From Patescibacteria group bacterium (GTDB lineage Bacteria > Patescibacteriota > Patescibacteriia > UBA10025 > JAHIVO01): a stretch of 64,000 nucleotides of DNA. Below are positions 23,140-55,012 of the stretch, in pieces; position 1 is the stretch's first letter, and every line of letters starts with the position of its first letter. The DNA lies in assembly GCA_049325535.1 (NCBI GenBank), contig JBMOKY010000001.1:157002-221001 (forward strand), in the 5' to 3' direction. The position numbers were made by a program, and so were the translations under genes. Below the pieces are notes generated by a model. It did not search any database, was not told where the DNA came from, and saw nothing but the letters and a program-made list of their open reading frames with translations.

Positions 23140-24510
23140 ATGCCACACACGCAATCAAACGACGAATGGCAAGACGGCTTCTTGGTCAAGGATCCAAGCG
23201 GCAGTTTTCGCAAAGTTACTGGAATGGATTTTATTGATGCCGATGCACCAATCCCGACAGTTGCTCCCGCCGCACCCCGGCCTGCTACTCCGCCACCGCC
23301 CCCTCGACCTGCCGCACCGGTATCAGCCCCGCGAAAGACTCCGCCGCCACCACCAACTCGAATGACTCCGGTGGCGCCGATTATGCCTCCTGCCCCACTC
23401 CAACCCCAGAAGCCAATCGCTGAGATGGGCATGGCTCCTTCGCCATTTATGGATCACGAAGACGCTGAAGAGATTAAACAGCATACGGCTGAACTACAGC
23501 AGATGGTGGCTCAGCCCGGACTGGACGTTTCGGTTACTATCAATGCCATCATCGAGCGGATTTTACGTGAGTATCGCCTGACCTTCGATACTGATGTGAT
23601 GCTGAAACGGTTTATCAAAGTCGTTGAGTCGCGATTTCGCGAGATTCGAAATTCACTGGAGACGGCCGATGTACTGCAGCGTCCGGAAAAAATCGGCGGA
23701 CTTGGGCTGCCGAGGGAAACCGTGCAGCAGATCATGGCTACGGTTGACGCTGAGATTGACGGATTGCATATGAAGAAAAGGTTGCCCGCTGTCCCGGCGC
23801 CCAAACCCAAAGCGCCATCCGCACGGGCCGTATCTACGGCTCCGCAGTCGCTGTACGCCGCGCCACCTCCGGCTTTTGTCCCTCGTCCCGGCGGCGCCGC
23901 ACCGAAACCGTCACCGACGGCACCACAACCATCGGCGATACAGCAAACATCAGATTTGGCCAAAGAAATAAAAGAGGAATTAACCCGGATTCCGCAGAAG
24001 CCCGCGGTGATTCCACCGGCACCTCCGGTTCCGCCGCCGGCACCAGCACCGAGCATATCTCCGGCCGCAGCGCCTGCCGCGAGCGAACCGCATGAACTGT
24101 ATGGTCAATCCCAGGGGGATATGCCGCGCATCCGTCCGGTGCAGCCAAATAAACCATACATGATTGACATCAAACAGCCGAGCGCAGTGGTCGGTCCGGT
24201 GGATGAGATACGGCAGATTGACCTGAAAGAATTTCGTCGTATGGGTACCAATCCCGGGGATTCGGCAGATCGGGTGTATGAAAAAATCGAACTATTGGAA
24301 GAAGAGTCCTGGGATATGCGCATGCAGGGTGTCCGAGCTTGGCGTCAGTCGCCATTATTTACCCTCTATGTGACTATCGGCCGGGCCAGCATGGAATCCG
24401 GCAATCCAGTCGACAGCGTCATCAGCAAACGCCAGCAGGCTGGTGAGCCGACGCTGCTTCCGGAGGAGTTTATGGCCGTCAACGCCTTAAATGCGAAATT
24501 AACCGTTTAG
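23140..24510 (+). CDS. hypothetical proline-rich protein (456 aa)
   Basis: Several PAxP/PPPP tracts and no TM segment. It sits immediately upstream of the T4SS-like genes. Confidence 0.55.
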   Translation: MPHTQSNDEWQDGFLVKDPSGSFRKVTGMDFIDADAPIPTVAPAAPRPATPPPPPRPAAPVSAPRKTPPPPPTRMTPVAPIMPPAPLQPQKPIAEMGMAPSPFMDHEDAEEIKQHTAELQQMVAQPGLDVSVTINAIIERILREYRLTFDTDVMLKRFIKVVESRFREIRNSLETADVLQRPEKIGGLGLPRETVQQIMATVDAEIDGLHMKKRLPAVPAPKPKAPSARAVSTAPQSLYAAPPPAFVPRPGGAAPKPSPTAPQPSAIQQTSDLAKEIKEELTRIPQKPAVIPPAPPVPPPAPAPSISPAAAPAASEPHELYGQSQGDMPRIRPVQPNKPYMIDIKQPSAVVGPVDEIRQIDLKEFRRMGTNPGDSADRVYEKIELLEEESWDMRMQGVRAWRQSPLFTLYVTIGRASMESGNPVDSVISKRQQAGEPTLLPEEFMAVNALNAKLTV

Positions 24511-24511
24511 T

Positions 24512-24943
24512 ATGCAACAGTTTATCGTTCCGCAATTTCTCGATGTCGAAAGCAAGATTATCGGACCCCTCACTGTCCGGCAGTTCATCACTTTTTTGAT
24601 CGGCGCGGGGATGATTTTCCTCGTTTTCAAACTGGCAACTTTTTGGGCGGCGGCTATCGAGGGTGTGCTGATTTTCGCTTTGACCGGCGTCTTTGCCTTT
24701 GCCAAGATCAATGGCCGGCCCTTCCACCATTTCTTGCTGAATCTGCTGCAGACGGTGCGCCGACCAACCTTGACCGTCTGGCACAAAAACTATGAACTGA
24801 GCAAAGTAAAAGAGGAAAAAGAAAAACAACCACCCGCCCGTCCACACAAAAAACAGCGACTGACCGAATCCCGACTAACCGAACTGTCGCTGGTAGTCGA
24901 TACGGGCGGCGCGTATCAGGAAGGCCTCGACGAGCTCAAATAA
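24512..24943 (+). CDS. PrgI/VirB3-like small T4SS membrane protein (candidate)
   Basis: 143 aa. N-terminal VPQFLDVESKIIGPLTVRQFITFLIGAG is followed by two hydrophobic helices. It lies directly upstream of the VirB4 homolog, as in Gram-positive-type T4SS. Confidence 0.45.
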   Translation: MQQFIVPQFLDVESKIIGPLTVRQFITFLIGAGMIFLVFKLATFWAAAIEGVLIFALTGVFAFAKINGRPFHHFLLNLLQTVRRPTLTVWHKNYELSKVKEEKEKQPPARPHKKQRLTESRLTELSLVVDTGGAYQEGLDELK

Positions 24944-24953
24944 AATATTCTCT

Positions 24954-25631
24954 ATGGCTACGGAATCTACTACAAAAACAGCTACCACTCCTTCCACCCA
25001 GCAGTACATGAATATCCTGGAGGTGAAGGATAATACGGTTATCCTCAAGGATGGAACGCTCCGAGCGGTCATTTTGGTATCGTCTATCAATTTCGCCCTG
25101 AAGTCGGAAGATGAACAAAATGCCGTCATGCAGGGATACGTTCAATTCCTCAATTCCATAGAGTTCCCTTTACAGATATTGATTCAGTCGCGGAAGCTCA
25201 ATATTGACGATTATCTTGAGCGACTGAAAGCCGTCGAGAAGGAGCAGACCAATGAGCTGCTGAAAATCCAGACGCGTGAGTATCGTCAGTACATCCAGGA
25301 ATTGGTTTCCCTGGCTGACATCATGAGCAAACGGTTTTATATCGTAGTGCCTTTTTCCGGCGGCACTATCAAGTCAAAAGGTTTTTTTACCCGGTTCAAG
25401 GAAGTGCTGACCCCGACAAATATCATCACCATCAAACAAAAGAAATTTGAAAAAAACCGCATCGAGCTGGCCAAGCGGATGGAGTATATCATTGATGGGC
25501 TGAGTTCAATCGGATTGAAGGCGGTCCAGCTCGACACGCAGAGTTTGATCGAGCTGTATTACAATACCTATAATCCGGATACGTACGACCAGCAGCCGCT
25601 CGTCGACGTGAGTAAACTCAATGTCGAATAA
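24954..25631 (+). CDS. VirB4/TrbE-family ATPase, N-terminal domain fragment (225 aa)
   Basis: YMNILEVKDNTVILKDGTLRAVILVSSINFALKSEDEQ is typical of VirB4 N-termini. It ends 2 nt before the start of the ATPase ORF, in a different frame. Confidence 0.55.
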   Translation: MATESTTKTATTPSTQQYMNILEVKDNTVILKDGTLRAVILVSSINFALKSEDEQNAVMQGYVQFLNSIEFPLQILIQSRKLNIDDYLERLKAVEKEQTNELLKIQTREYRQYIQELVSLADIMSKRFYIVVPFSGGTIKSKGFFTRFKEVLTPTNIITIKQKKFEKNRIELAKRMEYIIDGLSSIGLKAVQLDTQSLIELYYNTYNPDTYDQQPLVDVSKLNVE

Positions 25632-25633
25632 CT

Positions 25634-27550
25634 ATGGTTGAACTGTACCGCGCCACCCAGTCGGTTCCGACTGAGACTCCGCCCGAGCTGAGTCAGCAGG
25701 AAAAGGAACAGCTGGCCCGCGAACAACTCGAGGAAAAAAAGGAACTGCTCCAATCGGAGAAGATATATCGCCGTGGCGTGATGACGGTCAGGGATCTGAT
25801 CGCGCCCGCGTCCATGAAGATCGAATCTCGTTACCTCGAGCTTGGATCGCAGTATGTACGGACGGTATTTGTCGTGGCCTACCCTCGGTATATCCGCGTG
25901 GGGTGGTTCGCGCCGGTGATCAATCTGAATGTACCACTGGACATTTCCATGTATTTTTATCCAGTCAATTCGGAAATCATTCTGAAGCAGCTCCGGAATA
26001 AAGTCGGTGCGCTGGAGGCGCAAATACTGGCTGATGCGGAAAAGGGCGCCCCGCGTGATCCGATCCGCGAAACGGCGCTGCGGGACATCGAAAAACTCCG
26101 CGACGACCTGACCCAGGGCATCGAGCGTTTTTTCCAATTCGCCCTGTATGTGACCATGTACGCCAATACGAAGGAAGACTTGGACAAAATGACGGAAAAA
26201 GTGGAATCGCTCTTCGGATCGAGATTAGTCTATACCAAACGCGTGCTCTATCAGGCGGAACAGGGATTTATGTCGACCCTGCCCCTCTCGACGGATGAGC
26301 TGAATATCACGTTTAATATGGCCAGTTCGCCGGTCGCGTCATCATTTCCGTTTATTTCATCGGAATTGACCTCGGATAATGGTATTCTCTATGGCATCAA
26401 CCGGCATAATAATAGCCTGGTGCTGTTTGACCGGTTTTCCTTGCAAAATGCGAATTCTGTGGTGTTCGCCACCTCGGGTGCCGGTAAAAGTTACGCCGTC
26501 AAACTGGAGATTTTGCGGAGTATGATGCTGGGCACTGACGTCATCGTCATCGACCCGGAAATGGAATACAAATATTTGTCCGATGCCGTGGGCGGTACCT
26601 ATATCAATATTTCCCTGAGCTCGGACAGCAAGATCAATCCTTTTGATTTGCCCCGACCCACCCGTCGTGATGAAAAAGTTTCGGATATCATCCGTTCGGC
26701 GGTCATCACTCTGAAGGGCCTGCTGCGGCTGATGCTGGGGCAGTTTACCCATGAAGAGGATTCTATCATTGACCGTGCCCTGATCGAGACGTATGCCAAA
26801 AAAGACATCACCGCCGACGCTGATCTGACGCGCGTCGAGCCACCGCTGTTTAAGGATTTTGAGGAAGTGCTGGAGGGCATGGTCGGTGCCGATGAACTGG
26901 TCACTCGACTGAAAAAATATACCGAGGGCACCTTTGCCGGACTGCTGAATAATCCTACGAATGTGGAGATGAAAAATCAGCTGGTGGTATTTTCCGTGCG
27001 CGATCTGGAGGATGAGCTGAAACCGATCGGTATCCAGGTGATCGTGTCATATATCTGGAACACGGTCCGCTCGCAACTGAAGAAGCGTCTGATGGTCATC
27101 GACGAAGCCTGGTGGCTGATGCAGCAGGAAGATTCAGCCAAATTCATATTTGCCCTGGTGAAGCGGTGCCGTAAATACTACCTGGGAGTGACGACGATTA
27201 CCCAGGACGTGAACGACTTCCTGCGCTCGCCCTACGGCCAGGCCATCGTCACAAATTCGGCTATCCAGCTGCTGATGAAGCAGTCGCCGGCGGCTATCGA
27301 TCTGATTGCCAAGACGTTTCTGCTGACCGAAGGCGAAAAATACCTGCTGCTGGAGTGTGGCGTCGGTGAGGGAATATTTTTCGCCGGGTCCAAACATGCC
27401 GCCATCAAAGTCGTCGCCTCATACACCGAGGATCAGATCATCACTTCCGATCCGCGCCAGCTGCTGGAAATCGAGCAGGCAAAAAAAGAGTTTATCGAAT
27501 CCCAGAAAGAAGCGGCAACCGAAGCTGCTGAAGCCGCCTTTACGGGTTAA
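25634..27550 (+). CDS. VirB4/TrbE/PrgJ-family T4SS ATPase (C-terminal ATPase portion, 638 aa)
   Basis: Walker A SVVFATSGAGKSYAVK and Walker B MVIDEAWWLMQQ. Combined with the upstream fragment it is 863 aa, which is full VirB4 length. Confidence 0.8.
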   Translation: MVELYRATQSVPTETPPELSQQEKEQLAREQLEEKKELLQSEKIYRRGVMTVRDLIAPASMKIESRYLELGSQYVRTVFVVAYPRYIRVGWFAPVINLNVPLDISMYFYPVNSEIILKQLRNKVGALEAQILADAEKGAPRDPIRETALRDIEKLRDDLTQGIERFFQFALYVTMYANTKEDLDKMTEKVESLFGSRLVYTKRVLYQAEQGFMSTLPLSTDELNITFNMASSPVASSFPFISSELTSDNGILYGINRHNNSLVLFDRFSLQNANSVVFATSGAGKSYAVKLEILRSMMLGTDVIVIDPEMEYKYLSDAVGGTYINISLSSDSKINPFDLPRPTRRDEKVSDIIRSAVITLKGLLRLMLGQFTHEEDSIIDRALIETYAKKDITADADLTRVEPPLFKDFEEVLEGMVGADELVTRLKKYTEGTFAGLLNNPTNVEMKNQLVVFSVRDLEDELKPIGIQVIVSYIWNTVRSQLKKRLMVIDEAWWLMQQEDSAKFIFALVKRCRKYYLGVTTITQDVNDFLRSPYGQAIVTNSAIQLLMKQSPAAIDLIAKTFLLTEGEKYLLLECGVGEGIFFAGSKHAAIKVVASYTEDQIITSDPRQLLEIEQAKKEFIESQKEAATEAAEAAFTG

Positions 27551-27561
27551 TCACCATACCT

Positions 27562-28236
27562 ATGGCTCAATTTAATCTCGACCGACGTCAGATGCTGTAT
27601 ATAGCCGGATTGCTCCTGCTCCTTGTGGCGGTGGGTTTCGGCATATGGTTTTTGTATTTCCGCTCGACTGACGAGCCGACAAATACCAATCAGACCCCGG
27701 CGACCAATGCGCCGGTGGAAACCGTCAATGCCACTATCCCCACCACAAACGTCAATACTGCGGCACCGGCGCCTGAGTCGGTGGAGCTGACCCGGGTGTC
27801 CAATCTTTTTGCCGAACGGTTTGGCAGCTACACGTCCGTATCCGGATTTGAAAATATGATCAATCTGAAGCCCTACATGACCCTCAAAATGCAGCAAACC
27901 GCCGATGATTTCATCAAACGCCAGCCGGCGGTAACGGCCGAAACCCCCTATACTGAGGTGGTCACCAAGGTGGTTTCCACATCCATCACCGATCAGAATT
28001 CCAGCCAGGCTACGGTGCGTCTGAGCACCCAGCGCGTGGAGTCAGGAGACGAAATGGAACAGAATACCGTGTACTATCAGGATATCATCCTCACGCTGCA
28101 GCGGGCCGATGATATCTGGCTGGTCGATACAGCTACGTGGCAGGATGTGGGCGTGACAGCTCCTGATGACACCCCGCTGGATTCAAATGTAAATACCGAC
28201 GATATCCTCGATGATATCGTCAATGGCGAACAATAG
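27562..28236 (+). CDS. bitopic membrane protein, VirB8/PrgL-like candidate
   Basis: 224 aa with a single N-terminal TM (YIAGLLLLLVAVGFGIWFLYF) and a periplasmic/extracellular domain. Position next to VirB4 is the main support. Confidence 0.3.
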   Translation: MAQFNLDRRQMLYIAGLLLLLVAVGFGIWFLYFRSTDEPTNTNQTPATNAPVETVNATIPTTNVNTAAPAPESVELTRVSNLFAERFGSYTSVSGFENMINLKPYMTLKMQQTADDFIKRQPAVTAETPYTEVVTKVVSTSITDQNSSQATVRLSTQRVESGDEMEQNTVYYQDIILTLQRADDIWLVDTATWQDVGVTAPDDTPLDSNVNTDDILDDIVNGEQ

Positions 28237-28264: not shown

Positions 28265-29365
28265 ATGCGTAGCACGAAAAAATTCTTTGCCATCGGTGTC
28301 CTGGCAGCGCTCCTGCTGCCGCTGGTGGTTTTTGCGCAGACGTCGCCCAATGTCACCAATGACCCGTGCAAGATAGATGATTTTACTAAAGCCATCCGGC
28401 TGCAGATAGAGATCCCGGGCGTGACACAGACACCGGGAGTGCCGTTTGTGGACGGGCACTATGTGAAAAATTTAGGGTGCTACATCGTCGGTATCTACCG
28501 GTATTTCGTCGGGGTGGCCGGGATCCTGGCGACGGTATTTATCATGTATGGCGGTGTCCGCTATATCATTTCATTTGGCAATCCCGGATCGCTCCAGAGT
28601 GCCAAGGAAACCATCGAGAGTGCGCTGGTCGGACTGCTCATCGCCATCAGTTCCTATATGATTTTGTATTTTATCAATCCCAATCTGACGCGGTTTGATC
28701 TGGTCAATGTGACCGGTATCGCCAAATACGAAGATACCTGGTGTGAAGACCGCGAGCGGCCGGTGACGCCAGTCCAGGAGGGCGCGGTTAATTGCGGTAA
28801 TGTCGGCACTGAACAGGTGGAGGAGGGCACCGTGGCCAGCGCTGAATCAATAAAGTGCTTCTATCATGGTACTGATTGCTCCGATGTCGGGGAAACGTGC
28901 GTGCCTATTTCGGGCAGTGGGGCAGATCAAACATTTGAATGTCGGCTCATCTACGGCGATCAAACCTTATGCAAGGAAAAAGATCGTATCACTACCTGCG
29001 GTTTCCTGTGGCATGCGGGTGAAGCGGATCAGTGTGTCGGGCTTTCCTGTGGCGAAAATCGAGTCTGTGTTGGTGTTTTAGAAAATTCCAAGGCGACTCT
29101 CGAATGCGTTCAGTCCTGGCCAATCCTGTACCCCGTAGATAATAAGATGTACAATGCCGTGGTCGATGACTCGCTGGGCTGTGGTTATATCCGGTATGAT
29201 GACAGTTTTGGTTCGGTTACCAATCTAAAGATTGGCAGTGAATGTGAAGATAGGAAATCATGCGTAATTATGCCTCAAACTAGATATAATTTTTATGGCC
29301 CCACTGATTTGCGACCTCCTGATGCGACAATCGTTGGGGCATTTGTTAGTTTTGATTGCCAGTAA
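28265..29365 (+). CDS. secreted Cys-rich protein with a twin-helix hydrophobic module (VirB2/TrbC pilin-like or membrane hairpin)
   Basis: Signal peptide MRSTKKFFAIGVLAALLLPLVVFAQ. Module GVAGILATVFIMYGGVRYIISFGNPGSLQSAKETIESALVGLLIAISSYMILYFINPNL, then a ~220-aa Cys-rich C-terminal domain. The ORF track's longer frame starts at 28211. Confidence 0.65.
   Translation: MRSTKKFFAIGVLAALLLPLVVFAQTSPNVTNDPCKIDDFTKAIRLQIEIPGVTQTPGVPFVDGHYVKNLGCYIVGIYRYFVGVAGILATVFIMYGGVRYIISFGNPGSLQSAKETIESALVGLLIAISSYMILYFINPNLTRFDLVNVTGIAKYEDTWCEDRERPVTPVQEGAVNCGNVGTEQVEEGTVASAESIKCFYHGTDCSDVGETCVPISGSGADQTFECRLIYGDQTLCKEKDRITTCGFLWHAGEADQCVGLSCGENRVCVGVLENSKATLECVQSWPILYPVDNKMYNAVVDDSLGCGYIRYDDSFGSVTNLKIGSECEDRKSCVIMPQTRYNFYGPTDLRPPDATIVGAFVSFDCQ
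28517..28690 (+). repeat. copy A of a duplicated twin-helix module (nucleotide level)
   Basis: Identical to 31272-31336 at ~63 of 65 nt (atcctggcgacggtatttatcatgta[t/c]ggcggtgtccgctatatcat[t/c]tcatttggcaatc), plus the downstream shared ggactgctcatcgcc. Confidence 0.7.
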
Positions 29366-29436
29366 TTGACAGGCAAATACGGGGCTATCTGAATTTTTGT
29401 CTCATTAATCCATGTTCTGAATTCTTATAAAACAAT

Positions 29437-30702
29437 ATGAACCGTCGAGTATTACTCATCATCGCTTTTATCCTGATCGTCATCGTGTTTGGCGCGCTGA
29501 TTTATTTCGTATTTTTGCGCGATCTCTTTGGCCCGGATACAAATGCAAATAATGCCAATACCCCGACCAATCAGGTGACCAATGGCGTACTGCCGAATAC
29601 CAACAGTGCGACCAATGGCGTGCCGGTCAATGGCCTGACCAATGTAAACCGGCTGGTGAACATCGAACCGACAACCAATATCAATGCCGGTCCGGATCAA
29701 ATCGCCCAAGGCGGGGAGACGCTGGCCGGGTATGTGGCCTCGGCTGATGCCGAGGGAGTGTCGACTACTCCGGATGGAAATGGCATCCGATTTTATGACC
29801 GGGATCAGGGACTCTTTTTCATGCTGGATTCGCTGGGTACGAAAGTAAAACTATCCGAGCAGCTTTTTCCCCAGGCGGAGAGCATCGTCTGGGCGCCCAA
29901 GAGCAACAAAGCCATCGTCACCTATCCTGACCAGAGCAAGATCGTCTATGATTTCGACCGACAGAGTCAGGTGACCCTGCCGCGGGAATGGACCGACGTC
30001 GCCTTCAATCCAAACGGCGACAAACTCGCTTTCAAAAATGAATCAACAAATACCGATGACCGGTGGCTGGCCATATCCAATGCCGACGGTTCCCAAGTAC
30101 AGGGCATCGAACCGCTGGGGGACAACGGTAATAATGTCGACGTGAATTGGTCGCCGACCGGGCAGGTGGTGGCCACCTATCGCGAGGCGCAAAATGCCAG
30201 CCAGCAAGAGGTTTATTTGGTCGGTACTCAGGGGGAAAATTTCAAATCAATCCCCACCGATGGCCGGGGGTTTGAGGGTACCTGGTCTCCCGATGCCAGC
30301 CAGCTGCTCTACAGCGTGTACAATGCCGATTCCCGCTATAATCCCGTGCTCTATCTGGTGGACGCGTCTGGGGACAGTACCGGCGGTAATACGGTGAATT
30401 TGGGTTTGCAGACGTGGTCATTCAAATGCGCTTTTGCCCACGGCAGCCCGGCCGCTTACTGCGCGGTCCCGCGTTTTCTGCCTGATGGTTCCGGTATCGT
30501 CCCGGAAGTCGCGACCAATACCAATGATCTCATTTACCGGATCAATACTGATACTGGCATCCGCACGTTGGTGGCTATGCCATCGCTTGCCTCGGGAAAC
30601 GAAAATTACACGGTGGTCAATGTCGTCATGTCAAATGACGATCGCCGACTGTACTTCACCGACGCCAATACCGGTAATATTTATTCGATCCAACTTCAAT
30701 AA
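29437..30702 (+). CDS. membrane-anchored TolB-like PD40 beta-propeller protein
   Basis: N-terminal TM LLIIAFILIVIVFGALIYFVFL. PD40-like blades DVAFNPNGDKLAF, VDVNWSPTGQVVATY, FEGTWSPDASQLLYSV. Confidence 0.6.
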   Translation: MNRRVLLIIAFILIVIVFGALIYFVFLRDLFGPDTNANNANTPTNQVTNGVLPNTNSATNGVPVNGLTNVNRLVNIEPTTNINAGPDQIAQGGETLAGYVASADAEGVSTTPDGNGIRFYDRDQGLFFMLDSLGTKVKLSEQLFPQAESIVWAPKSNKAIVTYPDQSKIVYDFDRQSQVTLPREWTDVAFNPNGDKLAFKNESTNTDDRWLAISNADGSQVQGIEPLGDNGNNVDVNWSPTGQVVATYREAQNASQQEVYLVGTQGENFKSIPTDGRGFEGTWSPDASQLLYSVYNADSRYNPVLYLVDASGDSTGGNTVNLGLQTWSFKCAFAHGSPAAYCAVPRFLPDGSGIVPEVATNTNDLIYRINTDTGIRTLVAMPSLASGNENYTVVNVVMSNDDRRLYFTDANTGNIYSIQLQ

Positions 30703-32168
30703 TGGTTCCCATGTCACACCGATTCCTCATCCTGTTCATCGGATTACTCGGCGTATGGTCAGTCGTGGGGGGAGTACTGCCAGCCGATGCCCAACAGGAG
30801 GCGTGCTGTGTCCGCGGACCGGGTGACTGCTATCAAAAGCTCGATTATGAAGACATCGCCGCTTGTGCCGGCGGGTATTCACTGCAATTGCAGGCCTGTT
30901 CGACGATAAAAACTTGCCAAGCGGCATCGACGACCCAAGTACTGTGCTGTGTGTGTCGGGCCGGTGTGGGGGATTACTCCAATGGAACGTGTTTTGGTCC
31001 CCAGACTCAGACGCAACCCTGCGGACCGTCTACCGCACCGTGCGAGCAGAGTACGGAGGCCTGTACAGAAATAGATTTATGCAAGGAGTGGGCGGCAAAA
31101 ACAGAGACCCTCGACATCCCGGAGGACAATCCCCGGCTGGTTTGGTTCACCCCGCAGGTGACTATTCCTGGTTCGCAGTTGTTTAATCAGGGAACTCCCA
31201 TCTCCATCACCGGAGCGACGCTCGGGGAATATATCGTAGCGGTGTATTTCTTCCTGGTGAGCTCGGCTGGCATCCTGGCGACGGTATTTATCATGTACGG
31301 CGGTGTCCGCTATATCATCTCATTTGGCAATCAGTCAAAAATCGCCGCGGCCCAGGAAACGATCACCTCAGCGCTGATGGGACTGCTCATCGCCGTGGCA
31401 TCATATATGATACTACTGACCATCAATCCGAATCTGGTGAAATTTGACGGTATCAATGCCGAGCGTCAATTTCCGGTGGTGCAGCAGGAACGGGCGCAGA
31501 TCACGGAAAAAGCCGCCGGGTATTCGGTCACGGCCAATGTCTCGCGTTTTGACGGGTGCCTGACCGAAGCGGCTACGCTCAATGGCGTCAATCGCGACTG
31601 GCTGAAAGCACTGATGCTGGTGGAATCCGCGGGCAACCCGTCGGCAAAATCGCCTGCCGGCGCCTACGGGCTGCTACAGTTGCTGCCGACCACTGCCCAG
31701 CAGTATTCACCGAGCGTGACGGCGCAGCAACTACTCAATCCCGCTATCAATATCAGGATTGCCGCCCAGTATTATAAAGATTTACTGTATCATACCTGTC
31801 CGACCAAAGCGAAATACAAGAGCGGCAAATCAGTCCCGTGCTATCCGGACCAGACCCAGTGCAAACGGGGAGACGTGAAATACGCCAATGCCGCCTATAA
31901 TGGCGGTGTGGGTGCCAACTGTTCCAGTGTCACCTGTCCGGGCCAGACCTGGTGGGAGTGCGTGGAAAATGCCGGTTATGCTGAGACGCGGAACTATGTA
32001 GTGAAGGTACAGGCAGCATATGATAAAATCCAGCAATCGAAGCAAAACCCAGGGCAGTTCCCGCTCTACGTCTGGCAGGATGCGGGCGCGCCAACATGTA
32101 ATGAGCTGCAGGCACAGCCCACGTCCATGGTGCCGATGCTCAGTTTTCCCCTGGTCTATACCATGTAA
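30702..32168 (+). CDS. secreted Cys-rich protein fused to the twin-helix hydrophobic module and a C-terminal SLT lytic transglycosylase domain (VirB1/PrgK-like)
   Basis: Signal peptide, a ~150-aa Cys-rich region, module AGILATVFIMYGGVRYIISFGNQSKIAAAQETITSALMGLLIAVASYMILLTINPNL, then SLT motifs LMLVESAGNPSAKSPAGAYGLLQLLPTTAQQY and AAYNGGVG. Confidence 0.75.
   Translation: MVPMSHRFLILFIGLLGVWSVVGGVLPADAQQEACCVRGPGDCYQKLDYEDIAACAGGYSLQLQACSTIKTCQAASTTQVLCCVCRAGVGDYSNGTCFGPQTQTQPCGPSTAPCEQSTEACTEIDLCKEWAAKTETLDIPEDNPRLVWFTPQVTIPGSQLFNQGTPISITGATLGEYIVAVYFFLVSSAGILATVFIMYGGVRYIISFGNQSKIAAAQETITSALMGLLIAVASYMILLTINPNLVKFDGINAERQFPVVQQERAQITEKAAGYSVTANVSRFDGCLTEAATLNGVNRDWLKALMLVESAGNPSAKSPAGAYGLLQLLPTTAQQYSPSVTAQQLLNPAINIRIAAQYYKDLLYHTCPTKAKYKSGKSVPCYPDQTQCKRGDVKYANAAYNGGVGANCSSVTCPGQTWWECVENAGYAETRNYVVKVQAAYDKIQQSKQNPGQFPLYVWQDAGAPTCNELQAQPTSMVPMLSFPLVYTM
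31265..31440 (+). repeat. copy B of the duplicated twin-helix module
   Basis: See 28517..28690. Near-identical 65-nt core, ~80% identity over ~175 nt. Confidence 0.7.
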
Positions 32169-43473: not shown

Positions 43474-46400
43474 GTGCAAAACTCAATAAAAAATAAGACC
43501 TCATTCATTAATAGGGCTAATATTGGCCTATTTTTTATTTTTTTCTTTTTATTAGCCTTTTTTTTGGCAGATAGTGTATTTGCACAGCTTGACCCCAGCG
43601 CTCCTCCACCCGAGAATAATACCCCGGAGCTCATCCGTATAGATGAAACAAGCCAGGCAAAGAGCGGAGCGCTGCGTTTTGGTACTGACGATGCTACCTC
43701 ACCATTCACTTACCAGCTGGAGGTATTGGGATCCGGCGCCCAATTGAGTAATGCCATGGTGGATAATGAACTGTCGGTCAACCAATCAAACCGTACGCTT
43801 TTTGTGGATCCGGTTACTCATCGGGTGTGTGTCGGGGAATGCATCGATGATGCTGATTCGGTGCTGCAGGTCGGTGATGGTCGAGTGCATGTATCAGGGG
43901 TGGATGATACGGGCATCCAGGGGATGAGCCAGGCTGATATCGGACTGTACGGCTCTGGCGCGACCTATGGAGTCCAGGGGGTTTCCTCAAATCCTTTGGG
44001 CTATGGCATGTGGGCTGTCAGCACATTGAGTTCGGCGCTGATCGGGTCGCATACCGGGGTCGTGCCCGCATACAGTTCAGTGGCAGGGTTTAGTGATACT
44101 GGAGTTGCCATCTATGGTGCAAATACAAACCTAAACAATTTATGGTCATCATATTTTTCAGGGATAGTCGAGTCGAGTGAAATAATTTCAGCGGCAAAAG
44201 TACTTGCGACTGAACCTGGTCAGTCGTTCATCCCCTACACAGCGGGACAGTTGGCTGGGCAGTATTTTACTCAGTATTATCCAGGTCGTCTCGCCACCGA
44301 TGGCCGTTTTCTCTGGATAGCCCAGATGGGCAACTATCATGACTATTTACTGCAGGTGGATAAGGGAACCGGAACCATCATTGCTCGATTTGCACTGGGG
44401 CCAGCTCAGGATTTGATATACGACCCTGTTCACCAGTACATTTGGCAGGCCTCGGAGACGTATTCGGGCAGCATTGGGTATGTGGACGTGACTACGGGTA
44501 CTGGTGCGCGCCGCACTGTCCGCGATACTGATGGTCATGGCACATGCCCATTTGGCTTTATCGTGCGCGATCCAAATGATGCGGATATTCTCTGGGCATT
44601 GCAGTCTGGAGGAAACTGTTTTGGTCGTGATTATTATGATCGACTGCTCAAATTAAGCATTGCGGATTTAGCTGATAATCCGACGACCTGGGAACCGCTT
44701 GCCCGCTATGACATCGTGCACGATGAAGCTCCGACCGCACCCTTTACCGAAGGTCCTCGTGCCCTCACATTTGATACTGACACCAATACGGTGTGGGCAG
44801 CTTTTTTAAATAATGATGCCGTCTATAGAATAGATGCCGCCGATCCGGGAAACGGCGACACGCTGGTTACCTCAGCCGATTATACACGATATGACGTACC
44901 GGGCCCGACTGACCTCGCGGTTGATCCAGACCATCAGTATGTATGGGTATCAGCTGACGACAGTGGCACCGATAATGATGGGGCGTACTATATTGATATC
45001 TCTGCCGGGACAGTATCAGGCCGGATCATTACCGCCACCGGCGCAGTCGGACCTCAGGCGATCACCTATGACGGGACGAATGTGTGGGTGGCAACATATG
45101 ACGGGAGCACTGGCGTGGCTGACCGGTTCTCTGCCGGAAGCCCCGGGGCCGTCACCCATTTCTCCATTTCGGGAAACCGGTCGTATCGCGATATCCTGTA
45201 TGATCCGGTAGTGGAGGAGGTGTGGGTCCCGAGTTGGTATGGCAATTCGGTCAGCGGACTGAGCGTCAGCGACGGCAGCGTCCAACAGTTCTATGATTAT
45301 AGTGCTCGGGGATTTTCCGTACGGCATCATGACGGTACGTACGTCTGGCTGACGCGTAACGCTGAGGTATATAAGGTGCGGGCTGCAGACGGATTCATCG
45401 TATTTCGGGTGTCACTCGCCGGTACGCCGAGCGACGTGCTTTTTGATGCCAATGCCGTTTGGGTCACCGACAGCGACTCGGATATGGTATATAAACTTGA
45501 TCCCTATGACGGGTCGACAGTCTGCTCTCTGAGTTTGCAGGCTGGTGATGCACCGGTGAGTATCGTATTTGATGGGCGGACGTACTGGCTTACTGCCACG
45601 GGTTCGGGAGATGTAGTACAGGTAAGCAATACCTGCGGTGAATTGCAGCGGATACACGTGACCGCCACACCGCAGTCGCTGGGGCGCATAGTATACAATG
45701 GTAGCTATCTGTGGGTGGTTGCCAGCGCCGATAATGGCCTGATCAATATCAATCCCGCGACGGGCAATGCCGTGCTGTGGGATAACCTGGTTGGCGTAGA
45801 GCCGAGCGACATTTTTTATGATAATTATAATTATTGGGTGGCAAATCGGGGCACTAATTCCGTCACCGCATTTTATCTGACCGATGCCAAGCATTGTTCA
45901 CTTGATCAGTCGATGACGTGCAGCACGGACGCTGATTGCGGATCAAACGGCGGTTGTTTTGCCGATCCGCAATCGCGAGGCAGTTTCTCAGTGGGAAACG
46001 AGCCGGTGGCTGTCACTTTTGACGGTACGTACGTGTGGACGGCAAATGCATCAGGCAGCAGTCTGACTCGGCTGCTGGCGGCCGATCCGACAGTCCGTGA
46101 AGATGTTCCGCTTACTTTCTCACCTTTGGGATTATTGTTTGATAAGACGTACCTGTGGAGTACCGGTACCGGGAGTGCCGGGGATGTCGGTTTGGTAAAA
46201 TTATTCAGCGGGGTCGGGTATGGTACTGATTCGACAACCGATGGGTTAGCGCTCCAATCCGCGAGTCCCCTCACCTGGCAGCGCGGAAGCTACAGCATAT
46301 CCGGCGACGCCCGGGTGGGACAGTCAGTGAATATCGCGGGCGATCTGGATGGTGATAATAATTGGGGCGAGGCAGCAAGTGGTGATGCGATATTTAATAC

Positions 46401-47463
46401 GAATCTGGTGGTCTGGGACGGCATCAATGCATTACCTGATGGCGGGCATGACGTGCAGGCACTCATTCGAGCGTCTGACGGGTCGCTCTATGCTGGTGCG
46501 GTGACCGTGGCCGGCGCTCGCGTATTTAAATCGACGGACAATGGGGCTAGCTGGGTCAATACCGGTGGGCCAGCCAGCGGTACCCAGATTGATGCGCTGT
46601 ATGAGGCGAGCAATGGTGACCTATATGCCGGTACTGGTGGCGGCAACATCGGGTATATTTTCCGCAGCACTGACCAGGGAGCGACGTGGCCATTACTCCG
46701 CATGCTCAATGGCCAGGGTCCGGTCACGGCATTTCTCGAAGATGATGCTGATAATTTATATGCCGCGGCAGGTTTTGGCGCGACCGCGTATGTCTATAAA
46801 TCAACGGATGGGGGCGGCACGTGGAACAATACCGGGGCCATCGCCAATGCCACAAATATTTATGATTTGATACAGATCGATGACGGATCAATTTTAGCAG
46901 CCACCGGAAATGTCAACGGTAATGTGATGAGGACGACTGATCGGGGAGCCACCTGGATCGATACGGGTAATCTAGCCGGCGTGGATATCGTCCATGATAT
47001 CATCCAAGCAGCGGATGGATCGCTCTATGCCGGCGTGCATACCGGAGTCAGTGGTAATGTCGTATTTCGGTCCACGAATCGCGGCACCTCATGGGGATTG
47101 GTCGGCGCGGCTCCCGGCGCGGTTCAGGGATACTCTCTGACGCAGACCAGCGACGGTGCGCTGTACCTGGGTGCCGCTGTCGGGGTTGGGTCGAGTCAGC
47201 TGTATCGGTCGGCAAACAATGGCACTTCCTGGACAGAGGTATCAGGCCTGCCGGGCGGCGCCACCGCGTACGTCATCGTCAGTTCAGACGGGGCGCCGCG
47301 CTATAATCTGTATGTTGGTTTGTCGAGTACGAGCGGCGTCGCATCCGGTGAATTCGGTCCGCTACCTGCTGGTACGTACAATTGTCCCGAGGGGCATTTT
47401 GTGACCAATATCGAAACCAATGATTCGGACCAAGTCGTATTAATAGAGTGTCGACCACTTTAA
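43474..47463 (+). CDS. giant secreted surface protein, family A member 1 (1329 aa). It has YVTN/NHL-like beta-propeller repeats, a C-terminal BNR/Asp-box (sialidase-like) repeat array and a conserved C-terminal Cys-loop tag
   Basis: GTG start with an AGGGGG RBS. Signal peptide, then N-terminal QAKSGALRF and NRTLFVDP motifs. Repeats FDGTYVWTANASG and FDGRTYWLTATGSGD. BNR repeats STDNGASW, STDQGATW, STDGGGTW, TTDRGATW, STNRGTSW, SANNGTSW. Ends NCPEGHFVTNIE...ECRPL. Confidence 0.8.
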   Translation: MQNSIKNKTSFINRANIGLFFIFFFLLAFFLADSVFAQLDPSAPPPENNTPELIRIDETSQAKSGALRFGTDDATSPFTYQLEVLGSGAQLSNAMVDNELSVNQSNRTLFVDPVTHRVCVGECIDDADSVLQVGDGRVHVSGVDDTGIQGMSQADIGLYGSGATYGVQGVSSNPLGYGMWAVSTLSSALIGSHTGVVPAYSSVAGFSDTGVAIYGANTNLNNLWSSYFSGIVESSEIISAAKVLATEPGQSFIPYTAGQLAGQYFTQYYPGRLATDGRFLWIAQMGNYHDYLLQVDKGTGTIIARFALGPAQDLIYDPVHQYIWQASETYSGSIGYVDVTTGTGARRTVRDTDGHGTCPFGFIVRDPNDADILWALQSGGNCFGRDYYDRLLKLSIADLADNPTTWEPLARYDIVHDEAPTAPFTEGPRALTFDTDTNTVWAAFLNNDAVYRIDAADPGNGDTLVTSADYTRYDVPGPTDLAVDPDHQYVWVSADDSGTDNDGAYYIDISAGTVSGRIITATGAVGPQAITYDGTNVWVATYDGSTGVADRFSAGSPGAVTHFSISGNRSYRDILYDPVVEEVWVPSWYGNSVSGLSVSDGSVQQFYDYSARGFSVRHHDGTYVWLTRNAEVYKVRAADGFIVFRVSLAGTPSDVLFDANAVWVTDSDSDMVYKLDPYDGSTVCSLSLQAGDAPVSIVFDGRTYWLTATGSGDVVQVSNTCGELQRIHVTATPQSLGRIVYNGSYLWVVASADNGLININPATGNAVLWDNLVGVEPSDIFYDNYNYWVANRGTNSVTAFYLTDAKHCSLDQSMTCSTDADCGSNGGCFADPQSRGSFSVGNEPVAVTFDGTYVWTANASGSSLTRLLAADPTVREDVPLTFSPLGLLFDKTYLWSTGTGSAGDVGLVKLFSGVGYGTDSTTDGLALQSASPLTWQRGSYSISGDARVGQSVNIAGDLDGDNNWGEAASGDAIFNTNLVVWDGINALPDGGHDVQALIRASDGSLYAGAVTVAGARVFKSTDNGASWVNTGGPASGTQIDALYEASNGDLYAGTGGGNIGYIFRSTDQGATWPLLRMLNGQGPVTAFLEDDADNLYAAAGFGATAYVYKSTDGGGTWNNTGAIANATNIYDLIQIDDGSILAATGNVNGNVMRTTDRGATWIDTGNLAGVDIVHDIIQAADGSLYAGVHTGVSGNVVFRSTNRGTSWGLVGAAPGAVQGYSLTQTSDGALYLGAAVGVGSSQLYRSANNGTSWTEVSGLPGGATAYVIVSSDGAPRYNLYVGLSSTSGVASGEFGPLPAGTYNCPEGHFVTNIETNDSDQVVLIECRPL

Positions 47464-50400
47464 TTCGGCGTATGCGCATATTGCGAATCACAATTCAACC
47501 AGTGGTCAGCATAGGTATATGTGTGCTCATCGCTGCCGGCATCATCGTGCTCGCGGCACCGGTAGTGAGCGCTGCTTGGTTTCCTCCGTCGGCCCAACCC
47601 CCAGCGGGCAATGTTTATGCGCCGCTGAATACTAGCGCCGATAGCCAGGCAAAAGCCGGTAATCTGCTGCTGGACCCATACTATAATCCGTATGGGGAAC
47701 TTCCCGAAATCAATTACCCGCTGGAAGTGCGCGGTTCGCGCAATGCGTATATCAATGATTTGACCGTCACCTCTGACGGTATACTGGCGGTGGATACGGA
47801 TACGTTGTATGTCGATGGCGGCTCCCATGGCGTGGGTATAGGACTGACTGAACCTGAGACATTACTCGATATCGCCGGTGGTCTGCTGATCGGCAGCGCT
47901 TCCAGCGGCATTACCGGTTCGGCACTGGTCACCAGCAGCTCACTCAGTTATGGAGCGCTTGGCGTTTCGCTGACCGATGGTTTGACCTCGGTGCTCGGGA
48001 CAGGCACTGGCGTGGGTGTGTATGGCCTCCATACTGCTGGCGGGACAGGAATCCGCGCGGAGAGCGTGTCAGCCTCAGGTGCAGTCGGGAGCAGTGCAGC
48101 GCCGCTTGACCGGGCAGCTCCGGTGAAAGTAGCTGGGGTATACGGGCGCGCGCTCGGACTCGGTTCGTGGGCCGGGTATTTCGCTGAACAGACCGTGACA
48201 TCTGCCGAAGCGTATGCGCACGGATTCGTACCAAATCGCCAGGGGTATTCCCAGTATCCCTATACTATCGGTTGGGAAACCAGGGAGATAACGTCGAGTG
48301 CGCGCATCCAGCCAGAGACGATATTGTATGACGGTCGGTGGGTGTGGTTGCACAATTCCGTGACCTGGGCCAATGATCCGAATATTTTATTGATTGACCC
48401 GAGTAATGGCGCCATCAGCGAAGATTTTCGCCTGGTCAATGGCAGCGGAGTGGCGGCGCATGGCATGTCCCAGATGATTTTGGCTGGCGGGTATATCTGG
48501 ACAGCGAACTGGTGGGACGATGCGTATGGAGTATCCCGCGTAGACCCGAATGACCCGACGCATACTGCTACTCATTTTGCGGTGGGAAACCATTTCGGCG
48601 GCGGAGATGATGGTGCGCTCCGATTGGCCTATGACGATTTTACCACTGGTGGGCCCTATATCTGGACGGTGAATGGACCGGATAGCGCTACTTGGGACTA
48701 CACCCTCACTCGACTACGTCCGGCTGATGGTACCTATATCAATTTCCAGCTGAATCCAGTGGGTGGCCAGTCGTGTCTGTCTTATGATTGGAATCGCTGT
48801 ATCGATGGTATCGATAATGATGGAGATGGCAACATCGACCGTGGCATCTGCAGTAATCCGTCGTACACCACACAGGCAACCTGTGAGACCAACGGCGGTA
48901 CGTGGACACCGGGTGATACAGAGTGTATCAATAATGCCGGAACTGATACGGGCAATAGTCCGACCGGGGCGTATCCGGCGGGCGACGAGCGACTGGGTAT
49001 GTATGAGCCAAACGGACCATCCGGTATTACGGTCCAGCCAAATCTCATCGATCCGACCAATCCTACGATTTGGGTATCGTTTAGCGGGGTCGTGCCCAGC
49101 AATCCGACGAGGTATGAAGGAGAAGCGATCGCGAAATTCAGCGGATTAAACCCGACTGACACCGCGCTGCAGGAGGTGTATTGTCCTGGTCCGGCGACTG
49201 AACCAGATGCCATCACCAATGGCGACGGGTACATCTGGATTGGGTCGAGCGCGCATTACTCCAAATACCAGGGGAATGATGGACTCGACCGGTTCGATCC
49301 GGTGGCAGAAACCTTTACCCATTTTCCCGCTTCAGCGGGTATAGAGCGGATCGCGTATGATGACCAGTCCGCTGGTGGGCCGTATATTTGGGGGCAGAAT
49401 TTTTGGGAGATTATGCAGTTTAATCCGGACGGTTCCATGGCGCATTTGCATAATTTGCCGGACGGAATTGCTGATTTTACATTTGATTATTCATCCGGCA
49501 ATGAGCCGTATTTTTGGGCATCCCAGTCGATCACAGGAGGTCTGAGTCGGACAGCTATAGCCGCTCCATATGACTCCATTACCTATACTCCAAAAGGGTC
49601 ATACTCTGACGACATCGTGTTTGATGGCACCTATATCTGGTCGACGAATTCGACTGCAAATACCGTGAGTCGGTACCGGGCTTCGGATGGGCAGAAGGTG
49701 GGGGATTATTTTGCCGGGTGGTATCCGCGATATATCACATTTGACGGCAGCTCGCTGTGGGTGACGCATCTGAATGAGGGCGGACCGACTGAACTCGCTC
49801 AGCTGGATGCTTCGACTGGTGAACTCATCGGTGATTATGATTATGGTGCGGTGAGTAATCCTACGGGAAATGATATTCTTTTCGATGGTACATACGTCTG
49901 GATAGCCGATTTCAACAATAATCGACTGCGGCGAATCGATCCGGCTACGTGCAGTGCCGGTGTCTGCGCCAAAACTGACATTGCGGTACCGTTTGGACCC
50001 CGCGCCATCGCTTTTGACGGTAATTCTATTTGGGCGATACAGCACTACGCTACAGGACTCGGGCGTAATAGTTTTTCTCGTATTCACCGGGATACCGGCG
50101 CCGTGCTCAATACCTATACCATCCCAAACGCGTATAACGCCGATGGGAATCTCCGTTCGTTATTGTTTGATGGCACATACCTATGGATGGGCGCGCAGTA
50201 TCGGGATGCCCAAGGAATGAGTCTCTATAAAGTACGGCCGAATGATGGATCGGTCGCCGCACGGGTCACGCTCTATAATGAGCCGGGCGTGTGTTCGGGC
50301 GGTGATCGGAATCGTCTGTACTGCACGACCAATGCCCAGTGTACCGGTGGTGGCGCCTGTTCAGCTACGGCTACAAACGTCAGTGCCCTGACATTCGACG

Positions 50401-55011: not shown

Positions 55012-55012
55012 T

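Follow-up and report, generated by a model that had tools for sequence, protein, structure and literature searches.

A VirB2-like hairpin module shared, and apparently homogenised, between two Cys-rich proteins of a Patescibacteria type IV secretion cluster, one of them fused to a lytic transglycosylase domain

The Patescibacteria account for a large share of bacterial diversity, and the role of the type IV secretion systems (T4SSs) in these organisms is still unexplained (PMC10633639, PMC12857230). These systems carry arrays of VirB2-like pilins (PMC12102498, PMC10633639, PMC12857230), which have been treated as small, highly divergent paralogues with a mean identity of 25% and a maximum of 54% (PMC12102498, PMC10633639), and most genomes possess VirB2 without VirB1, the component to which local opening of the peptidoglycan is ascribed (PMC12102498). 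In Southlakia epibionticum the pilin array of the T4SS was found to be essential for epibiotic growth, and the Patescibacteria T4SS is the only one so far shown to be essential to the growth of its owner (PMC10633639, PMC12857230). Here we analyse a stretch of 64,000 nucleotides (nt) from a Patescibacteria genome (contig JBMOKY010000001.1, positions 157,002 to 221,001), referred to below as the window, in which two genes, designated A (28265-29365, plus strand) and B (30702-32168, plus strand), encode Cys-rich proteins that share a predicted VirB2-like hairpin module, B being in addition fused to a lytic transglycosylase domain. The central part of this module appears to have been homogenised between the two genes by gene conversion.

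The locus resembles the described Patescibacteria pilin arrays in that its hairpins match PF18895 and its genes are chromosomal, adjoining virB4, virB3/prgI and a TraC-like gene, with neither a relaxase nor a coupling protein in the cluster as read here. It differs from the published pilins of this group in that A and B are 366-488 amino acids (aa) long and bear large ectodomains, one of them with a VirB1-type enzyme, and in that their hairpins are 66% identical. In common with the hydrolases of the VirB1, TraG(pIP501), PrgK and TcpG type, B possesses a family-1 SLT domain with the Glu-Ser motif, and its gene belongs to a T4SS cluster. VirB1 in its canonical form is soluble and periplasmic, while the VirB1-like hydrolases of monoderm bacteria usually combine SLT and CHAP domains with a single N-terminal transmembrane (TM) segment; unlike these, the SLT domain of B follows a Cys-rich N-terminal domain and a pilin hairpin, and it has a Cys-containing insertion. 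With the TrbC/VirB2/TraA pilins (PF04956), A and B would share a signal peptide, two hydrophobic helices, a short basic turn and the location of both ends outside the membrane; however, the window modules reach TrbC at an E value of 0.11 only, find no match among solved pilins and reside in far larger proteins, the 366-384 aa of A and 488 aa of B, with ectodomains of 105-235 aa, comparing with about 100-120 aa for the small, hairpin-only TrbC/VirB2 precursor.

Arrays in which several virB2 paralogues adjoin virB4 are also known from Anaplasma and the Rickettsiales, where they have been proposed to vary a surface organelle (PMC3556328). Conserved TM helices combined with variable exposed parts are common to those arrays and to the present locus; in the former, however, variability resides in the short hypervariable termini of small pilins, the host is a eukaryote, and neither a swapping of enzymatic or Cys-rich domains nor a fusion to a hydrolase is seen (PMC3556328). 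A further likeness, to type IV pili (T4P), is an analogy only, fold and machinery being unrelated. In T4P pilins a conserved hydrophobic assembly helix is common to subunits with different globular domains, and gene conversion between the pilE and pilS copies of Neisseria diversifies the exposed part of the pilin, whereas conversion in the window would homogenise the buried or membrane part.

When genes A and B were compared with each other, BLASTN returned a single significant match (148 nt, 78% identity, E 1e-29) and BLASTP likewise one block, with 54 of 80 residues identical (E 4e-31) and nothing else significant; this block is the hairpin module. Across all relatives the module is ungapped over 84 aa, occupying 28466-28717 in A, where it was aligned with 19 other modules as a helix, a 4-residue turn and a second helix, and 31215-31466 in B, both on the plus strand. 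Identity between A and B, 66% over the hairpin as a whole, reaches 100% in a core of 20 aa. The near-identical DNA core (28523-28583 and 31272-31332) comprises 61 nt with two mismatches, both of which are synonymous (Tyr, TAT/TAC; Ile, ATT/ATC), and the two copies form a direct repeat in a register of 2749 nt. An earlier reading of the letters alone (the sequence-only reading) had placed such a core in these two genes, with coordinate pairs that are trivially one base off, and both the core and the domain order that it described for A and B were borne out. No third copy of the module was detected in the 64-kb window by tblastn or with a hidden Markov model of the module.

By profile comparison the module is assigned to PF18895 ('T4SS_pilin'), that is, to a predicted VirB2-like hairpin consisting of a signal peptide and two helices. 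Gene product A scores 31.0 bits on this family and the isolated module of B 26.7 bits, the gathering threshold being 26.6, and all 14 modules from seven genomes match it (best E 6.6e-10). The TrbC/VirB2 family PF04956 was matched by two of these 14 modules at an E value of 0.11, its threshold of 27.9 bits not being reached. Among 121 relatives obtained in a search with the module, 13 match PF04956 (best E 1.5e-13), and another member of the module family reaches TrbC at 2e-5 (25 bits). Since these 13 members match TrbC, the family bridges to VirB2, the link of the window modules themselves being indirect, and the suggestion that the module is VirB2/TrbC-pilin-like is thereby supported together with the PF18895 scores.

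In each of the two proteins hydropathy indicates a separate N-terminal signal-peptide-like segment in addition to two later hydrophobic helices, an arrangement that is not that of a generic signal-anchor, the trivial explanation considered at the outset. The AlphaFold models contain a confident helix-turn-helix in both A and B (predicted local distance difference test, pLDDT, 82-91), formed by helices 70-102 and 107-137 in A (numbered from the start at 28265; pLDDT 84-91) and by helices 171-206 and 211-241 in B (pLDDT 82-91). All cysteines lie outside the hairpin (18 of 18 in A and 22 of 22 in B), which agrees with an N-out/C-out topology in which the turn is cytoplasmic, as in VirB2-type pilins, and with such a topology the ectodomains of A and B would both be displayed outside the membrane. 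Conserved features of the hairpin are an invariant GG pair, the G before the turn and the INPNL cap, and the ends of the module are type-specific (...ILYFINPNLTRFD in A, ...ILLTINPNLVKFD in B). A short 'x-I-x-I-P-G' strand ahead of helix 1 may also be common to both proteins (HHalign 68%).

Gene B encodes 488 aa in which a signal peptide, a Cys-rich N-terminal ectodomain, the pilin hairpin and an SLT lytic transglycosylase domain follow one another. The signal-peptide-like segment would, judging from hydropathy, end at ...ADA, ahead of QQ. The Cys-rich ectodomain (30792-31106, plus strand) holds 14 Cys with CC and CCVC motifs, is modelled with small strands, and displays a CC..C..CCVC pattern that is conserved in the alignment of homologues. 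Downstream of the hairpin, the SLT family-1 domain with its Cys-containing insertion (31542-32111, plus strand) makes up the C-terminal ~200 residues and scores 61.1 bits on PF01464 (E 9.7e-17, residues 286-405, gathering threshold 21.3). Its sequence contains the motifs LMLVESAGNP...GLLQL...AAYNGG; in 36 homologues E308, S309, Q326, A397, A398, Y399, N400 and G402 are invariant and G401 nearly so, and the insertion bears an invariant TWWEC-type motif. The model of the domain (pLDDT >95 over 281-470) has a goose-lysozyme-like fold and matches Slt, MltE, MltF, MltC and MltD in Foldseek (E 5e-6 to 1e-3), among them Slt 6fc4 (5.4e-6) and MltE 4hjy (TM-score 0.62, normalised to the target). On these grounds of family match, catalytic motifs and fold, the fusion of one copy of the module to a VirB1-like SLT domain, as originally proposed, is well supported, and the domain appears intact and active-looking.

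Gene A, the close homologues of which are named 'pilin' by NCBI, encodes a signal peptide, a short N-terminal ectodomain, the pilin hairpin and a Cys-rich, beta-rich C-terminal ectodomain of 215 aa. Its likely start at 28265 (MRSTKK...) yields a protein of 366 aa, and an alternative upstream start at 28211 one of 384 aa. The predicted signal peptide (MRSTKKFFAIGVLAALLLPLVVFA, followed by QT; 28265-28336, plus strand) corresponds to a hydropathy peak at aa 25-43, counted along the 384-aa form, shows a basic n-region as well as a VFA-Q site, and forms helix 5-22 in the AlphaFold model; cleavage would fall between ...VFA and QT. The C-terminal ectodomain (28718-29362, plus strand) contains 16 Cys, the strands of the model lying within residues 155-365. 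A Foldseek search of the PDB with the whole model of A gave nothing significant (best E 0.67), so that the Cys-rich beta domain is one without an identified fold, and in NCBIfam A obtained only a sub-threshold match, to the Mycoplasma integrative and conjugative element pilin-like family NF045849 (E 0.008). The C-terminal Cys-rich domain of A and the N-terminal one of B are not detectably homologous (HHalign probability 0.1%), and the idea that a single Cys-rich domain had moved across the module was abandoned for this reason.

Fusion of the hairpin to cell wall hydrolases extends well beyond the window. The homologues of B, named only 'lytic transglycosylase domain-containing protein' by NCBI, form 56 clusters, at least 33 of which have PF18895 and PF01464 together in their precomputed annotation, and several more align over the whole length. 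The module family as such is large; clustered at 50% identity, it numbers 17,122 representatives under a limit of E <=1e-3 and 1,391 under one of E <=1e-10. Among the 121 module representatives, about a quarter carry a peptidoglycan hydrolase (18 SLT, 8 VanY/M15, 1 M23, 1 NlpC/P60 and 1 3D); the VirB1 that is missing from many Patescibacteria T4SS clusters may sit hidden inside pilin-family genes. In the loci collected for this study, designated by L numbers, the module precedes an SLT domain in L107 (6718-7773) and a Peptidase_M23 domain in L128 (3195-6233), and two adjacent paralogues in L114 (4481-6831) with 100% aa-identical modules are linked to a phage-type lysozyme and to a weak CHAP match. 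A contig scan with the B-type alignment selected generic SLT motifs and thus mostly unrelated Slt genes; the module was carried there only by L010 and L012, each with a pilin and pilin-SLT pair, and by L011, with a truncated pilin-SLT gene (L009 being a repeat of L004).

Nine or more other genomes, sequenced in unrelated projects, show the A/B arrangement, and the pilin-hydrolase fusion is a conserved and widespread architecture of the Patescibacteria. The expectation of an unusual T4SS architecture holds relative to textbook T4SSs and fails with regard to rarity. In the searchable text of the literature neither pilin-hydrolase fusions, nor a homogenised hairpin core, nor recombination at the module was found to be described, and as far as that text extends the pilin-lytic-transglycosylase fusion, pilin-hydrolase fusions in general, the homogenised core and the module-centred mosaics described below appear to be new, the T4SS, PF18895 pilins and multi-pilin arrays being already published. 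As a separate observation, many relatives hold 2-8 hairpin copies in one chain (P0080, P0082, P0086, P0095, P0104 and others), and P0080 combines several hairpins with an SLT domain; such chains may represent polytopic 'poly-pilin' proteins.

We propose that A and B are paralogous T4SS subunits which share one building block, the VirB2-like hairpin, and each of which has its own cleavable signal peptide. Both proteins would enter the membrane by way of Sec, leaving their termini on its outer face, whereupon the VirB3/VirB4 machinery would use the hairpin common to both to build them into a single pilus or platform. Subunit A would be adhesin-like or structural and display its disulfide-rich, Cys-rich beta domain outside the membrane, while B would expose a Cys-rich domain of another kind and, across the hairpin from it, the lytic transglycosylase, and could thus be a tethered VirB1-like wall-cutting subunit placed where the apparatus crosses the peptidoglycan of its own wall or possibly that of the host. 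The central ~45 codons would be homogenised repeatedly by non-reciprocal recombination between the copies, the last event in this genome being so recent that hardly any synonymous sites have diverged since; a need for compatible hairpins, and hence selection for a matching core, would preserve the converted state, and purifying selection or selection for matching would keep the proteins identical after the synonymous sites have randomised. That A and B enter one pilus or platform through the matched hairpin, in conjunction with gene conversion, is the account that we favour and regard as reasonably probable. A bolder version, in which the subunits of a heteropolymeric, enzymatically armed pilus polymerise through a PF18895 hairpin core and bear interchangeable exposed cassettes (lytic transglycosylase, lysozyme, CHAP, M23/M15 peptidases, Cys-rich binders), so as to cut the wall of the host bacterium or of the cell itself, seems doubtful. 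If it were correct, recombination at the hairpin would constitute built-in cassette swapping that keeps the subunits compatible and generates new combinations of ectodomains.

The main rival, conceivable if on balance unlikely, is a hairpin that serves only as a membrane anchor or docking element; without ever polymerising, it would hold unrelated exo-domains (hydrolases, Cys-rich binders) at the cytoplasmic membrane or at the VirB3/VirB4 platform, and the concerted evolution described below would stem from a shared binding partner or from mechanistically easy conversion. The many relatives that carry enzymes which must act on their own wall near the membrane would suit such an anchor, and the VirB1-like hydrolases of Gram-positive bacteria are typically membrane-anchored. 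Against this, a signal peptide is already present and a single TM segment would do as an anchor, while conservation, and with it the specific likeness to PF18895/TrbC, is greatest in the hairpin, with its GG pair, G before the turn and INPNL cap; in addition, the pilin arrays are essential in S. epibionticum and have been taken by reviewers as the sign of a pilus (PMC10633639, PMC12857230).

A number of observations nevertheless tell against polymerisation of a VirB2-like subunit. The ectodomains are large in comparison with the ~70 aa of mature VirB2, a hairpin with 100-215 aa at one or both ends may be unable to pack like VirB2, and the chains with 2-8 hairpins resemble a polytopic membrane protein and not a pilus subunit. 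As regards the family assignment, full-length B scores 21.6 bits on PF18895, below the gathering threshold of 26.6, and the module profile detected no relative among solved structures when run against all PDB sequences (its matches, to TM helices of an opioid receptor and to a phage sheath protein at E >=0.58, were discarded as chance). As A has no significant fold match either, the VirB2 assignment rests on Pfam profiles, and Foldseek gives no link to TraA/VirB2 because a helical hairpin is too generic. Furthermore, in the accessible text of three reports (PMC10633639, PMC12102498, PMC12857230) no experiment or structure shows polymerisation of PF18895 proteins, and for no member is assembly into an extracellular pilus demonstrated experimentally.

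Comparison of the A- and B-type modules in 10 genomes with the syntenic cluster revealed that the edges of the module follow gene type while its central 45 residues follow the genome. Over the first 17 residues, agreement between A and B was 0.42 within genomes and 0.39 across genomes, and that between orthologues 0.65 (A-A) and 0.62 (B-B), as for old paralogues. Over the central 45 residues, in contrast, the within-genome value for A and B was 0.75, compared with 0.56 across genomes and 0.61 (A-A) and 0.55 (B-B) for orthologues, an excess that was reached in 0 of 200000 permutations. In 13 of 20 cases the central tract was closest to that of the paralogue from the same genome, as were the 5' flank in 2 of 20 and the 3' flank in none of 20, the tract thus grouping by genome and the flanks by gene type. 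Concerted evolution of the hairpin between paralogues predicts that these physically share one assembly, and the concerted tract pinpoints the ~45 residues that must match.

In seven of these genomes the number of identical codons at conserved degenerate residues was set against the expectation from the codon usage of each genome. The putative conversion tract of the window (module columns 17-62, plus strand) extends over 28517-28651 in A, as delimited by codon excess, and over 31266-31400 in B by the same tests, and holds the near-identical core in each gene. Within it 27 of 33 codons are identical where 12.9 would be expected (p<5e-5). An excess was also observed in L004 (20 of 37, 12.6 expected, p 0.008) and L005 (21 of 38, 13.5 expected, p 0.009), and there was no significant one in L003 (16 of 39, 13.9 expected, p 0.28), L006 (11 of 29, 9.5 expected, p 0.34) or L007 (8 of 24, 8.5 expected, p 0.65). 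The flanks display no excess, either in the window (2 of 7 against 2.9 expected, and 7 of 12 against 6.1) or when pooled over genomes (5', 21 of 50 against 22.1; 3', 29 of 82 against 34.0). This confinement of the codon excess to the tract indicates a recent gene conversion in this genome, and the simplest reading of the whole is one of episodic gene conversion between two direct copies, recent here and older elsewhere. The sequence-only reading had proposed gene conversion or module exchange from nucleotide identity, and the codon statistics and the 10-genome comparison now strengthen that proposal beyond what it could have known.

That there was no recombination, the resemblance being due to purifying selection on a hydrophobic helix combined with codon bias or to protein-level co-evolution alone, is very improbable. 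Such an explanation can appeal to the 20-aa core being among the most conserved parts of the module family and to the lack of a codon excess in L003, L006 and L007, but for the window it is largely refuted by the 27 identical codons, and equally conserved residues of the 5' flank use different codons in 5 of 7 cases. Orthologous tracts in different genomes share codons at a random level (0.33-0.39 against 0.32 expected), so that the nucleotides themselves are not constrained, and a nucleotide-level functional element in the core was rejected on the same evidence. Moreover, L106, L110 and L114 exhibit 92-96% nt identity that is confined to the module.

The conversion model is not free of difficulties. 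In L003, L006 and L007 the tract is alike at the protein level and random at synonymous sites, and for these loci the data fit an old conversion with subsequent purifying selection as well as they fit protein-level co-evolution alone. In the middle of the tract of the window, the 6-codon inter-helix turn (28583-28600 and 31332-31349) differs at 14 of 18 nt, for which reason a single simple conversion tract is insufficient; two tracts, patchy repair, later replacement or diversifying selection could account for this patch, and the same turn positions are among the most concerted between paralogues in most other genomes. Finally, conversion may be neutral, acting on the only stretch sufficiently similar to recombine, without any selection for matching. 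The remaining explanation, that the duplicated core is an assembly artefact in the form of a collapsed or chimeric repeat, can be dismissed with near certainty since, although one public assembly is broken exactly at the B copy (L089 ends at window position 31214 and L090 starts at 31302), as is to be expected of a genuine repeat, two independent Logan assemblies (L001 and L002, which agree with the window at 98.7% identity over 12 kb) each extend across A and B and reproduce their sequence, including the two mismatches of the core, and the copies stand in frame in different conserved genes, in the arrangement that recurs in the further genomes mentioned above.

The role of the module in exchange is seen more widely in the family. 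The three tandem pilin-module genes of L106 (4170-7236) make up a mosaic, with gene 2 being 98.2% identical to gene 3 at the nt level over the N-terminal region and module (560 nt) and 98.5% identical to gene 1 over the module and C-terminal domain (743 nt), while genes 1 and 3 share the module only (244 nt, 91%); each shared block contains 10-11 mismatches, which speaks against duplication by the assembler. Adjacent paralogues in L110, L114, L107 and L126 have modules that are 94-100% identical (84-95% at the nt level) beside C-terminal domains at background similarity (0.23-0.32). In L168 (GCA_043798785.1) a single hybrid protein (3538-4659) joins an A-type N-terminal region and module to an SLT domain, within a cluster that is otherwise syntenic and has no separate A gene. 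The L106 and L168 cases, together with identical modules beside unrelated C-terminal domains, indicate that the hairpin acts as a recombination junction, and from these sequences it appears to be the crossover point at which N- and C-terminal ectodomains are swapped across the family. Of the two proteins in the window it had been said that they are shuffled, which is true of the module at the family level and does not apply to this pair, the Cys-rich domains of which are unrelated. A junction of this kind offers a mechanism for rapid change of what these organisms present to their hosts, and this point, like the residues that must match and the VirB1 that may hide in pilin-family genes, is testable in the genetically tractable Saccharibacteria.

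Genes A and B sit within a chromosomal VirB3/VirB4 cluster, co-directional with it, in a genome of the Patescibacteria whose nearest relative is Ca. Kerfeldbacteria. The cluster is the chromosomal Patescibacteria T4SS of Quinonero-Coronel et al. 2025 (PMC12102498). In order it encodes a proline-rich protein, a PrgI/VirB3-like protein, a TraC-like N-terminal fragment, VirB4, a 224-aa protein, A, a beta-propeller protein, B and radA, with recG beyond radA on the opposite strand; according to the map of open reading frames (ORFs), most neighbours overlap or lie no more than a few dozen nt apart. PrgI, the TraC-like gene and VirB4 are located 0.7-3.7 kb upstream on the same strand. The cluster is syntenic in seven other genomes (L003-L008 and L168): L003, a metagenome-assembled genome of Ca. 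Kerfeldbacteria, has the same gene order and housekeeping neighbours with proteins that are 56-62% identical, the same order and neighbours occur in four further Patescibacteria assemblies (L004, L005, L006 and L008), and the short contig L007 retains the stretch that begins with A and ends with recG.

At the head of the cluster stands the gene for the proline-rich protein (23140-24510, 456 aa), which has no family match; a gene of similar length and without a recorded family occupies this position in L003-L006 and L008. Its candidacy as a VirB6-like protein was dropped on account of its proline-rich composition, the lack of a family match and the absence of obvious TM helices, nor did the examined part of the cluster yield a recognisable polytopic protein of the VirB6 type. 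The PrgI/VirB3-like small membrane protein of 143 aa (24512-24943, plus strand) is syntenic in L003-L008, PF12666 (PrgI) being recorded for the identical gene in L001/L002. VirB4 is split over two adjacent genes on the plus strand, a TraC-like N-terminal fragment of 225 aa encoded separately (24954-25631; PF11130 TraC_F_IV, weak, and PF26593 TraC-like) and a VirB4-type ATPase of 638 aa (25634-27550; PF19044 P-loop_TraG at 2.2e-28, AAA_10, and CagE_TrbE_VirB, weak). The split is kept in the six syntenic loci that reach this region (L003-L006, L008 and, from the same organism, L001/L002) and is therefore a real architecture and not a pseudogene. The 224-aa protein (27562-28236, plus strand) has an N-terminal TM segment and no Pfam match, and is found at the same position in L003-L006, L008 and L168. 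Between A and B lies the gene for a TolB/Tricorn-like beta-propeller protein of 421 aa with an N-terminal TM or signal segment (29437-30702, plus strand), which matches TIGR02800 (TolB) at 2.5e-9, under the cutoff of the model; it occurs between the two pilin genes in all syntenic loci, and its stop codon overlaps the start of B by 1 nt, so that it would be translationally coupled to B.

Elsewhere in the window, 55012-64000 on the plus strand is a single stop-free frame of at least 2996 codons that runs past the window end. This region had at first looked oddly devoid of ORFs, none of at least 160 aa being listed for 55-64 kb, an impression that was given up once the one giant ORF was recognised. 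Five more giant ORFs of 794-1969 aa are located at 107-6016, 6003-10787, 43474-47463, 47448-51152 and 51162-53546, the window being rich in giant genes that probably encode surface proteins.

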